From positions 16,368,001 to 16,432,000 of the forward strand of contig NC_092349.1 of the NCBI RefSeq assembly GCF_963676685.1: DNA of 64,000 nt, in the 5' to 3' direction. Source of the stretch: Mytilus edulis (taxonomy: Eukaryota). The translations under genes and the position numbers were made by a program. Every line of letters begins with the position of its first letter. Within the stretch, counting starts at the first letter, position 1. The notes under the pieces are model-generated. The model saw nothing but the letters and a program-made list of their open reading frames with translations, made no database searches and was not told the origin of the DNA. Shown in pieces: positions 27,801-33,800 of this stretch.

Positions 27801-30800
27801 ATATAATGTATTGAAGTAGAAAAAATATTTAACATGACTTTTATCGTCATACCAATCCAAAACTTTTTCTATCACAAATAATTTTTAGTTTGGTGTTTTT
27901 CATCAAATAAATGAAATGTCAATAACAATTTCTTCAATGCAAATGATGATAATGTTGATGTTGGGAAAAGGAGATTGTATTTGTGATGATGATACAAGCA
28001 ATGGAAAGATCCACTGTAGGGTTCGAATTCTGTCAAACAATCTCGATCAATCATTCAAATTTTAATGTACCTCATCACTATTGCAATGGACTCTGCTGGA
28101 ACAATTCCCTGGGGTATTAATCGCCGAACATTGATAACATGTTAGCGCTAAAATGATAAAAGTGCTTTGTTACATAATTATACATATATATATATATATA
28201 TATATAATTATTTGTATATATATTATATATATTATATATAATATCTGTAAAAATACATCACCCAACAATTTATAATAAAGTCAATTTACACTCAAATGGT
28301 TCCAACTCTTCACCGATTATTGCTACAATGTTAATGTCGTTTGACTATTTTACTAACCATCAGTGGGTTACAACAGTGTTAAACTTTTTAAGTCTTCAAA
28401 AGAACTACTTTACTTAGTAAAAAACTGTATGCTAACCGGCAACATTCGTTTTGATCTTGTAGACGGATAGTTTTTATTCGTATTTCTGCATGGTACAGTA
28501 TTATACAAAAAATCTATTTACAATATATGAATCGCCTGTTTTATGTATTTTGATAGGTAAAAACTCGTTGGATTTTTTGTGATCTTTGGACATAATTGGT
28601 AAAAAAAAAATGTGTGCTTATTTTGTTATATTCCGGTTGTGTAAATATGTCCTTGAATAACATCTTGTCGATATGTCTTCTTTTCTATGTGTTTGTTTAT
28701 GTCGTTCTGCATGCTGCCTTTTTTGCGGAGAATTACAACTACTGCATCGGCCGTGATAGTTTTAACCTTTAACATACATGTAAAAACTGATAAAAGCAAA
28801 ATTAACCAAATATATATATTGATACATACAAACATTAGAAGGGAATTGCAAAGGACGAAGGAACATAATTTACATTATAATATTTTTGTGTTAATTTGCC
28901 AGCATAACGATAAATTTAAAACAAAAAGAAAGAATAGAAGACGTGTCGACAGGATGCCTAATTCGGTATACTCAATGTACATATTTACACAACCGGAATA
29001 TAACAAAAAAGCACACATTTTTCATCAATTATGTACAAAGACCCATGCTATGTAATCCAATACATCAAATGCATATTTATGTGTGATTGATTTGACTCCT
29101 AGTAATGCATAATTTCTATCCGAATGTCTTCATATTCGGAATACATGTAAGTGCCTATAAACGAACTTAGTGGTATTATTGGTTAGATGGTTAGATGGTT
29201 GACAAAATATTCGTACTGCTCATAATTAACGAAAACTAAAATGCCCCCTTGCAACATGCGTTAGTCTGCTGCAACCTCGTTGTCAAGCTGTCAGAGCCAA
29301 GCAGACAAAGGAACTGGGAATTACTAGTTATCACGTTATGCAATGTATGACATAACTATATCGTCTAGAAATATCAATTGATATATCAAATATGCTGTTA
29401 CATGGCTTAAGAATTAACTTACAACACTTTCCACAGGTTGTGGGACACAATGTCGACACGCAAGGAAGATGACAACCATTGTTTGTGGCTAAATATTGGC
29501 AGACGACTGTGTCTATTACATGACAATGTGTGTTGAGATGAATATTACCGTTAGTGTGAACTGAAATGAATATTACCGTTAGTGTGAACTGAAACGAATA
29601 TTACCGTTAGTGTGAACTGAAATATATATATTATCTATTACATGGCAATGTGTGCTGAGATGAATATAACCGTTAGTGTGAACTGAAATATATATACTAT
29701 CTATTACATGGCAATGTGTGTTGAGATGAATATTGCTGTTAGTGTGAACTGAGGTATATATACTATGTATTACAGAATGCTCTCTCCTGTCGAGCGAGAT
29801 GAATATTACCGTTAGTGTGAACTGAAATATATATGTCCATGTATTATAGTATTAAGTTAAATAAGATATCTTATAAATTAATTGAGATATCTTATAAACT
29901 TTTAGAGATATCTTATATATTAATTGAGATATCTGATTTATTAAATAAGATATCTTATATATTAAATAAGATATCTTATTAAAATGTTTATAAAGATATC
30001 TTATTAAATATATACGATATCTTATTAAATATATAAGATATCTTATTTAAAATATAAGATATCTCTATTAATTTATAAGATATCTTATAAACTATATAGT
30101 AAGATATCTTACTTCTTTATAAAGATATCTTTTAAATACATACTTTATAAGATATCTTATTAATTAATAGAGATATCTTATAAACGAATAGAGATATCTT
30201 ATTAACTATATAAGATATCTTTTATATTGTTTATAATAGAGATATCTTATTTACTTAATAAGATATCTCCATAAGATACTAAGATATCTCTATTAGTTTA
30301 TAAGATATCTCTATTAATTAATAAGATATCTCTATTAGTTTATAAGATATCTCTATTACTTAATAAGATATCTCTATTAATTAATAAGATATCTTATTAA
30401 GTATGTATTTAAAAGATATCTTTATAAAGAAGTAAGATATCTTATATACTTTATAAGATATCTTATTAACTAATAGAGATATCCTATTAACAAATAGATA
30501 TATCTTATAAACTTTTAGAGATATCTTATTACCTTATAGATATATCTTATTAACTTATAGAGATATCTTATAAACTAATAGATATATCTTATAAACTTTT
30601 AGAGATATCTTATTAACTTATAAAGATATCTTATTGAATTGGTTATAAAGATATCTCTATTAGTTTATAAGATATCTCTATTAATTAATAAGATATCTCT
30701 ATTAGTTTATAAGATATCTCTTTTAATTAATAAGATATCTTATAAAGTATGTATTTAAAAGATATCTTAATAAAGAAGTAAGATATCTTATATACTTTAT

Positions 30801-33800
30801 AAGATATCTTATCAATTAATAGAGATATCTTATTAACTTATAGAGATATCTTATAAACTAATAGAGATATCTTATAAACTAATAGAGATATCATATTTAC
30901 TTTCAAATTGAATAAGATATCTTATAAAAATTAAAGATATCTTAGTACTTACATAGTTGTAACAAGATGTTTTATTAAATAAATAAGATATCTTCAAATT
31001 TGAATAAATATAAAAACGGCATGCCATAGCTCTCTCTTGTCGGGCGTGATGAATATTACCGTTAGTGTGAACTGAAATATATAGTCTATTACATGACAAT
31101 ATGTGCTGAGATGAATATTACTGTTTGTGTAAACAGAAATATAAATATTGTGTATAATTACTGAATGCTCTCTCCTGTTGGGCGAGATGAATATTACCGT
31201 TAGTGTGAACTGAAATATATGGTTTATTACATGACAATATGTGCTGAGATGAATATTACCGTTAGTGTGAACTGAAATATATATACTATGTATTACAGAA
31301 TGCTCTCTCCTGTCGGGCGATATGAATATTACCGTTAGTGTGAACTGAAATATATAGTCTATTACATGACAATATGTGCTGAGATGAATATTACTGTTTG
31401 TGTAAACAGAAATATAAATATTGTGTATAATTACTGAATGCTCTCTCCTGTTGGGCGAGATGAATATTACCGTTAGTGTGAACTGAAATATATGGTTTAT
31501 TACATGACAATATGTGCTGAGATGAATATTACCGTTAGTGTGAACTGAAATATATATACTATGTATTACAGAATGCTCTCTCCTGTCGGGCGATATGAAT
31601 ATTACCGTTAGTGTGAACTGAAATATATAGTCTATTAGATAACAATGTGTGCTCAGATGAATATTACCGTTAGTGTTAACTGAACTATATAATATACTAT
31701 GTATTACAGAATGCTCTCTCCTGTCGGGCGAGATGAATATTACCGTTATTATGAAATGAAATATATAGTCTATTACATGACAATGTGTGCTGAGATGAAT
31801 ATTGTCGTTAGTGTGAACTGAAATATATATACTATGTATTACAGAATGCTCTCTCCTGTCGGGCGAGATGAATATTACCGTTAGTGTGAAATGAAATATA
31901 TAGTCTATTACATGACAATGTGTGCTGAGATGAATATTGTCGTTAGTGTGAACTGAAATATATAGACTATGTATTATAAGTGCTCTCTCCTGTCGGGCGA
32001 GATGAATATTACCGTTAGTGTGAACTGAAATATATAGTCTATTACATGACAATGTGTGCTGAGATGAATATTACCGTTAATGTGAACTGAAATATATACA
32101 TACTATGTATTACAGATTTGCTCTCTCCTGTCGGGCGAGATGGATATTACCGTTAGTGTGAAATGAAATATATATACTATGTATTACAGAATGCTCTCTG
32201 TCTGTCTGGCGTTGAATAATCATTTTCGATGACCTTTAGCAGAAATTTGGTCTAACTTTTATGATTATTTGTTAATGATCTCAAATTACCATCTGTTATC
32301 TTACTTTTGAAAATAGCTTAATATGATTAATCAAAATTAATCTATTTCTTACCGTCATCAAGATAAATAAGGTTTATTCTTTATGCAAAATAAAATACTG
32401 TTAAGCTTATTTAGCGAGAATTTCTGATCGTCATTTGCCATGAAGGAGTTACCATTACGACCATCATTTTAATAATTAAATAGTGGATGTAACGCGTCTT
32501 ATGATTGGCTCGCGTTGTTTTATTTATCAGCTCATAGATATAATTATGTCATGTGACCATGACGTCATCAACTATTTTTCATGATTTTCTCGGGTTTGAA
32601 ATGGAATTAGGAATTAAATCATAAGAAATGACTTTAATATTTTGTCTGCCTATTTGAAATAACATGAAAAATGTGATGCACACTTTAAAATAACACGCTA
32701 AGCGGGTTATTCAGTGTGCACCACTTTTTTTTTATGTTATTTACTCATAGACAGAAAAAATATTACATTCATTCCTTAAATATGTGATTATTCGTAGTAG
32801 TTTTATACATATTAAAAGAGGGAGTGTTCAATATCATAAAAAAGGAATAGAAATTAGGAATGTGTCAAAGAGACAACAACCTAACCACAGAGCGGAAATA
32901 TCACAACCAAATAGGTCTTCAATACAGCGAATATATCCCGCACCCAGAGTAAATCAAAACAAAAGTCAAAATATGCCATCATTAATGACCTGACTATAGT
33001 ATCAGAACTATATTCCTTCTGTTTAAATGTTTCTTTAGATTGTGAGGTGAATGTCAACATTTTTGTGCTTTGTAAAGAATATTAGCATAAAAGATTGGAT
33101 TTGAAATACCTAAACGTACAAGATGTTTGCATGTTGATTGTTACGAACAATGTCCTTGTACTTATGATGAAATTTAGTAAATGTTTTGAGTAGTTTGTGA
33201 TTTCGAAAACACTTGTGTAATGATTTTTCAGTAATACATATATTTCTTTCGCTAAAATCTAATATGTCGTTACATGCAAGAGCGATTCTTACAAGTGGAA
33301 TATAATACGATGGCATAAAAGGTTCATTCCAAACAATAAAATAGTGTGTTCCACCTTTTTCACGAATAATATGGCATGTTGACGAATTAAAACAAAGCGA
33401 TACTCATTTTTACACGTACATTTATCAATTATTTTATCTGCTTACCCTTCCGGAGCACCTGAGTTCACCCCAGTTTTTGGTAGGGTTTGTGTTGCTGTAG
33501 TTTTATATGTTGTGTATGGTGTAATATTTTTTTGTCTGTGTGTCTTTATCTTTATAAGCTATGACGTTGTAAGTTTATTTTTCATCTATGAGTTTGAATG
33601 TCCCTCTGGTATCTTTCACTCCTCTTTTATATACATGTGTCTCGTTTAGTATTATAACGATGAAATGAATAAAACAACATTGTGATATTTCTAGATTTAT
33701 CATTTGACTAAATCAAATACCTCTTCACAAACTAGATGTGTATACATGAATCACAGATCTATAAGTTTAGAAATTATATCTTTTTCGACGACTTTTTAAA

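Follow-up and report, generated by a model that had tools for sequence, protein, structure and literature searches.

The DNA analysed here, called the window throughout, is a stretch of 64,000 nucleotides (nt) of the Mytilus edulis genome (assembly GCF_963676685.1, contig NC_092349.1, forward-strand positions 16,368,001 to 16,432,000), and all coordinates below refer to it unless another sequence is named. Its minus strand carries a gene whose fifth intron ends in a tandem array built from copies of the gene's own junction with exon 6. This intron 5/exon 6 junction is present 23 times between 32163 and 29561, always on the minus strand, i.e., 22 extra copies and the real one. We consider it probable that the array is a locus-specific minisatellite of junction copies that likely arose through slippage guided by microhomology and is likely neutral, the last copy being the one spliced (see below).

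The domain order of the host gene is signal peptide, ShK-like, Ly6/three-finger, ShK-like, Ly6/three-finger, and C-type lectin, the signal peptide and lectin labels being taken from the sequence and from source names, neither as a Pfam hit. Pfam supports both Ly6/three-finger domains (PF00087, 27.4 bits), and the ShK domain (PF01549) falls under its curated cut-off (exon 6, 14.5 vs. 20.9 bits, E = 0.054; exon 2, 14.0). Exon 6 is thus ShK-like by its cysteine spacing together with a weak, sub-threshold Pfam match, so that the plain ShK label given in a preliminary description of this DNA, made from the sequence alone, agrees with the cysteine pattern and goes further than the Pfam score. A protein search with exon 6 returned one cluster (90%) of five Mytilus models of 253–465 amino acids, and beyond this M. 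edulis-complex cluster and one model from M. coruscus the protein searches gave no other relatives. The M. edulis model P0002 (465 amino acids) has no differences from the window inside the exons.

Structure of the junction array

Copies were counted by anchoring on the first 26 exon bases in a search of the whole window, where no copy of this exon start lies outside the array. A 21-nt junction motif, with up to three mismatches, was matched 21 times, all on the minus strand between 29548 and 32170, compared to a mean of 0.02 in 100 shuffles. The units fall into three types. The A units (10 copies of 62–66 nt) consist of a short acceptor tail and about 50 bases of the exon, with the first ShK cysteine among them; in the B units (10 copies of 72–76 nt, one of them split) 26 bases come from the exon and about 47 from the intron; and a third type of only 28 nt is present in two copies adjoining exon 6 (Table 1). 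Units 9–12 are an exact duplication of units 13–16 (0 of 273 nt differ) and A4 is identical to A6, while units 19 and 20 are 92% alike and share 80–88% with the distal A units. The unique flank upstream of the first copy is likely the template of the B-unit tail and the end of what we presume to be the original intron 5.

The AG is kept in 18 of the 23 copies (17 of the 22 upstream ones) and lost in five, which read AT (32163, 31891, and 31756) or TG (31407 and 31134). Only from 29561 does an open 138-nt phase-1 exon run to the donor at 29422, as all 22 upstream copies, read to that donor, hit a premature stop. The acceptors nearest the exon (29561, 29589, 29617, 29683, and 29749) are offset by 0, 28, 56, 122, and 188 nt, and two far copies that are in frame by offset, 32087 and 29822, reach a stop after 37 and 19 codons. 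A stop-free frame of 358 codons (30994–32070, minus strand) crosses the distal array and ends by a stop inside the transposable element described next; we reject it as coding sequence and regard it as an accident of the 135/138-nt B-A dimer.

One B unit is interrupted by a miniature inverted-repeat transposable element (MITE), so the array must be older than this insertion. The interior of the MITE consists of AGATATC-type 21-nt palindromic repeats, and the copy in the window has kept its left terminal inverted repeat (TIR) and lost the right one with the target duplication. Its left end was scored at 40 loci of 291 candidates in the genome. Among 11 other copies examined, seven have both TIRs, with TA..TA ends, within the locus examined, and six of these seven full copies carry a 6-bp target duplication (the other scores 0). 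The family as a whole is high-copy (loci L025–L035), with TIRs of about 25 nt and an interior of 470–1076 nt in the seven full copies. TA..TA ends and 6-bp target duplications have been described for IS3EU/GingerRoot DNA transposons in the accessible part of PMC10045372, and the full copies elsewhere in the genome share both. The MITE differs from those transposons in being non-autonomous and packed with the 21-nt palindromic repeat, the window copy also being without its right end, and the superfamily name would express a likeness only.

The preliminary description had correctly recognized a tandem splice-junction array ahead of exon 6, as well as the five offsets. Its estimate of about 18 copies turns out to be the number that keep the AG, and the loss of the AG that it ascribed only to the most upstream copy (~32161) affects four others too. 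Of its further statements, that of two unit types holds for A and B and missed the 28-nt type, that of 29561 alone being in frame holds among the five nearest acceptors and has to be qualified for the two far copies, and the span 29423..32200 that it treated as junction repeat throughout includes ~1.17 kb (31028 to ~29855) of MITE, which had been overlooked.

Table 1. Coordinates of the host gene, the parts of the array, and the neighbouring exons
Feature	Position	Strand	Description
Host gene	18870..47254	-	12 coding exons; from protein models and spliced contig; exon 1 placed by eye
Exon 5	33838..33991	-	Last part of first Ly6-like domain; supplies the donor of the array-bearing 4277-nt intron
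Unique intron flank	32163..32230	-	Ends in first acceptor-like tail, AG to AT at 32163
Distal array, copies 1–17	31029..32162	-	B (72–76 nt) alternating with A (62 nt)
Non-autonomous TIR element (MITE)	29855..31028	-	~1.17 kb, inside B unit 17; right boundary approximate
Proximal array	29617..29821	-	B unit 18 (73 nt), A units 19 and 20 (66 nt)
28-nt units, copies 21 and 22	29561..29616	-	Acceptors 29617 and 29589; exon nt 1–22 and short acceptor tail
Exon 6	29423..29560	-	138 nt, phase 1-1; coding exon 6 of 12; His-rich linker and second ShK-like domain
Exon 6 splice sites	Acceptor AG ends 29561; donor GT 29422	-	True sites, from spliced contig of run X15
Exon 7	28071..28147	-	Start of second Ly6-like domain

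Variation between animals

Four of 24 listed sequencing runs were compared over the region 29150–29848. Two of them, X1 (27 contigs) and X4 (21 contigs), consist of DNA-type contigs and bear different organism labels; such contigs attest to presence, not absence. Junctions of both A and B type are present in X1 and X4, showing that the array is not peculiar to the RefSeq assembly, and one X1 contig joins the unique flank (32200–32229) to a B tail. In a 188-nt contig from X1 the true exon comes directly after an A-type tail, with no 28-nt units in between (joint 29565–29626), and its residues resemble those of M. galloprovincialis models. The depth at 29846–29848 is 0 in both runs, where loose ends at 29833 continue into further units and not into the MITE, and no contig among the pieces listed for this region enters the MITE. 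The array varies in composition between animals or haplotypes, as the preliminary description had expected, and no single-junction allele was seen among the run contigs of the region. Summed contig depth at the exon start (~480–490 vs. 54–80 in X1 and 16–24 vs. 9.8 in X4) is in keeping with an array of several copies whose size differs; it is not a copy number, however, and was not used as evidence.

A single codon is shared by the window exon and one unit of the array. At position 29533 the exon of the window encodes Asn (AAC), whereas X1, X4, the RNA-type run X15 (see below), and the models P0001, P0003, P0005, and P0006 have Ser (AGC). The AAC is common to the window exon and unit 19 (~29721) only, eight of the nine other A units reading CTCAGC and unit 8 reading CTGAGC. 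With the change from Ser to Asn, an internal AG at exon +27/28 is lost as well. One possible explanation is conversion between the unit and the exon, although the shared base is a single site, for which parallel change or a copy taken from the exon could also account.

Origin of the repeat

The repeat belongs to this locus. All 13 matches of a DNA search lie inside the array, and a genome-wide pattern search with a 20-nt core placed 16 of 17 matches there, the only outside match being on contig C12 with one mismatch (the pattern-search counts are lower bounds); the unit is therefore not found at many unrelated loci. Three of three paralogs examined have the homologous short ShK exon with a single acceptor and without tandem repeat, and two of them open with VHPSGN or VQPSGN, after AG/TTCAC or AG/TCCAA (the slash marks the junction). 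Since paralogs without the array share the exon start and the unit is confined to the locus, the repeat derives from the exon, and an origin of the exon start from a dispersed repeat was rejected on the same grounds. When 20 junctions of the host gene were tested, the exon 6 acceptor was the sole repeated one (others 0 of 19; the probe for one donor was misplaced by a single base, and the 20 do not include two of the donors). At least three paralogs (G000:C6:16258649-16311081; C10:23579679-23591292) have the same arrangement of exons; two of these, on the same contig, are tandem copies no more than about 130 kb away from the host gene.

Short identities at the loop-back points predict the unit lengths. 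With the 7-nt word TGTAATA lying at both intron −26 and exon +41, the expected unit is exactly 66 nt; a 6-nt word shared between −56 and +17 gives an expectation of 72 nt, the B units being 72–76 nt; and in the Ser-type exon the TCAG at +25..+28 is the same as the last four bases of the acceptor, which predicts 28 nt. We infer that these microhomologies caused the duplications, by looping back on three separate occasions from within exon 6 to the end of the intron, which would have given the 66-, 73-, and 28-nt units. A B-A dimer would then have been amplified by unequal exchange, the exact 273-nt block probably being the latest step, and the MITE would have entered one B unit and later lost its right end. 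The slippage or template switching proposed in the preliminary description gains support from the microhomologies, the single-acceptor paralogs, and the confinement to the locus.

That the assembly produced the array, or its length, as an artefact, or that a dispersed repeat supplied the start of the exon, we find extremely improbable. Mis-assembly could account for the exact 273-nt duplication, and no contig among the 17 pieces listed (of 53) spans the array or contains the 28-nt junction. However, the differences among the units are ordered, and the A/B junctions recur in independent DNA runs along with the same upstream flank. As for a dispersed repeat, besides the arguments given above, the A units include the first ShK cysteine.

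Splicing of exon 6

Run X15 contains one 532-nt contig that spans 29561–29423; beyond this stretch its ends continue into exon 5 on one side (1 mismatch in 30) and into exon 7 on the other (0 in 30). It is spliced at both ends, and its acceptor is 29561, neither a decoy nor the internal AG at 29489; the latter is ruled out as the acceptor in this contig, which starts at 29561, so that exclusive use of 29489, raised in the preliminary description, does not apply here. The four full-length models of the cluster also pass from exon 5 directly to VHTNGN, which corresponds to acceptor 29561 (P0004 is a partial model without the exon 5/exon 6 region), and neither the five cluster models nor the M. 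coruscus relative contain extra unit-derived sequence.

The pyrimidine tract is weak and similar in all copies (8–10 of 17, compared to 9–14 at the other acceptors of the gene). Each unit has a CACTAAC, which is branch-site-like by the branch consensus; the 28-nt units place its A at −19 ahead of acceptors 29589 and 29561 only, and for most others it lies at −53 to −67. Of all the acceptors, just the last five have the strong donor at 29422 within 300 nt. Exon definition would thus favour 29561, the upstream copies having no strong donor nearby, and use of an upstream AG, should it occur, would lead to a premature stop and likely removal by nonsense-mediated decay (NMD). The array is likely neutral, since the last copy, which alone is followed by the remainder of exon 6 and the donor, is probably the one that splicing uses; like unequal exchange, exon definition, the fate of such stray products, and the microhomology origin, this neutrality is something we infer.

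Several observations weigh against a neutral array with splicing restricted to its last copy. The transcript evidence is one contig with a depth of 7.45, and the run it comes from is labelled RNA by guess; rare forms are lost in contigs, decoy products would be concealed by NMD, and the X15 animal may have another genotype at the array. Acceptors 29589 and 29561 have a near-identical context, with equal pyrimidine counts and the branch-like motif at −19 in both, and it is plausible from the sequence that they compete on the haplotype of the window. Most units have a donor-like ACG/GTAATA at +12, from which pseudo-exons could possibly form. The exon 6 linker is not deeply conserved, its first ~9 residues being different in the M. 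coruscus ortholog, which agrees from STHCH onward. Finally, changes at the AG exceed those at other sites in the raw counts (5/44 vs. 24/616, p = 0.037). After collapsing, which dropped 5 of 22 units on both sides as exact duplicates, this enrichment was not significant (3/34 vs. 19/476, p = 0.17), and no AG change is found among the 12 differences listed in X1, X4, and X15. Selection knocking out decoy AGs is accordingly not supported.

The preliminary description saw in the array a field of decoys that could tune expression or cause exon skipping. In the most specific form of this idea, upstream acceptors (above all 29589) would be used, their products would go to NMD, and haplotypes that differ in the 28-nt units and the MITE would differ in the output of a probable immune protein. 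The retained AGs in 17 of 22 upstream copies together with the premature stop that all 22 give, the nearly identical context of the two last acceptors, and the exon-bearing X1 allele without 28-nt units are all in line with such an allele-dependent dial, and human tandem repeats near splice sites are reported to alter splicing (PMC10078293, accessible part). Against it, the sole RNA-type contig uses 29561, the protein models are free of unit-derived sequence, there is no sign of selection on the AGs in either direction (p = 0.17), paralogs manage without an array, and the published mirages, junction duplications of amphioxus discussed below, leave splicing undisturbed and yield no aberrant mRNA according to the accessible parts of their descriptions (PMC3087553, PMC3902484). 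We consider the dial unlikely, and a regulatory role of the array is unsupported. Quite unlikely too, in our judgment, is an old multi-allelic splicing rheostat across the M. edulis complex, in which the 28-nt units would make CACTAAC the branch site for two acceptors 28 nt apart, haplotypes would lose differing amounts of the mRNA of this ShK-Ly6-lectin immune gene to NMD, and units would convert the exon (Ser to Asn).

Another reading is that new exons or introns could be made from the units: between an upstream AG and the donor-like site at +12 there would be an in-frame micro-exon of 12 nt, or pseudo-exons of greater length, and the coding exon might be converted by units. The donor-like sites are there in most units, the Asn codon is common to unit 19 and the window exon where the other A units, four models, and three runs read otherwise, and intron gain from mirages has been proposed (PMC3087553, accessible part). 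But no protein model or contig contains an added piece, and the single shared base could have other explanations (see above); we rate this reading as very improbable. A locus-specific, likely neutral minisatellite, probably spliced at its last copy, is the reading we keep in the comparison that follows.

Comparison with known systems

The accessible parts of the papers cited here describe mirages in amphioxus as minisatellite-like duplications of intron/exon boundaries, with units of 10–160 bp, of which many, though not all, carry splice signals, and as varying between haplotypes without interfering with splicing (PMC3087553). Examples are Adh3, the globins BflGb6 and BflGb9, troponin C, and PGBD5, the last two from PMC3902484, and somatic instability has been reported for the Adh3 mirage (PMC3087553, PMC3902484). 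The mussel array resembles them in having the 3′ end of the intron and the 5′ start of the exon in tandem within the upstream intron, in units (28, 62–66, and 72–76 nt) that fit the 10–160 bp range, in keeping the AG in 17 of 22 upstream copies, in the homogenization of neighbouring units, and in the difference between alleles; the one RNA-type mussel contig is normally spliced. Six mirage features are found in it: it spans the boundary, and has the unit size, partial AG retention, locus specificity, homogenized turnover, and haplotype variation, where the locus-specific, gene-derived condition is our own reading of the mirage definition. It differs from the amphioxus cases in its bivalve host, in the number of extra copies (22 vs. 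3–6 in BflGb6), and in combining three unit types and breakpoints at one acceptor, a higher-order dimer, and interruption by a MITE.

Human genes offer further parallels in the accessible parts of two other papers. In CBS, 844ins68 duplicates an acceptor junction, the distal site is favoured, and the mRNA is normal, and a 31-bp tandem repeat of variable copy number (VNTR) spans a junction in 16–21 copies; unlike the mussel array, 844ins68 is a single extra copy and the VNTR spans the donor by its coordinates (PMC2630376). Variable internal tandem repeats of human duplicated genes also lie at exon-intron boundaries in recently duplicated families, and they are often tied to new introns or alternative transcripts (PMC2812944), none of which was seen in the mussel models or contigs. 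A literature search that left most subscription journals outside its coverage found no Mytilus mirage.

The mussel array fits a mirage-type minisatellite, of the kind already known from amphioxus, and extends mirages to a bivalve. It also documents the formation of such repeats through its three breakpoints, the microhomology that can be seen, the higher-order dimer, and the MITE that came later, and its natural alleles form a series in which one can ask why near-perfect upstream acceptors are ignored by the spliceosome. It would have a greater importance only if the use of decoys were measurable and allele-dependent.

Other features of the window

Within the host gene, the donor of exon 4 at 35093 (minus strand) is of the GC-AG type, and the M. 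coruscus model P0006 is without exactly this exon, probably an annotation miss. Intron 3 holds an opposite-strand long terminal repeat (LTR) element (~35335–43400, plus strand) with a gag-like open reading frame (ORF) at 35868–36908 and a pol-like one at 36884–41461, which is of the Ty3/gypsy type by its motifs. No difference separates its two terminal repeats in the 300 nt compared, so this element is young. Elsewhere in the window, a 99-bp unit is repeated 21 times (96% matches) at 49703–51800, inside an intron of a plus-strand gene that is presumably biotinidase/vanin-like, and three consecutive ORFs at 8106–11605 (plus strand) resemble, by their motifs, a Penelope-like element, with a reverse transcriptase and a GIY-YIG-type endonuclease.

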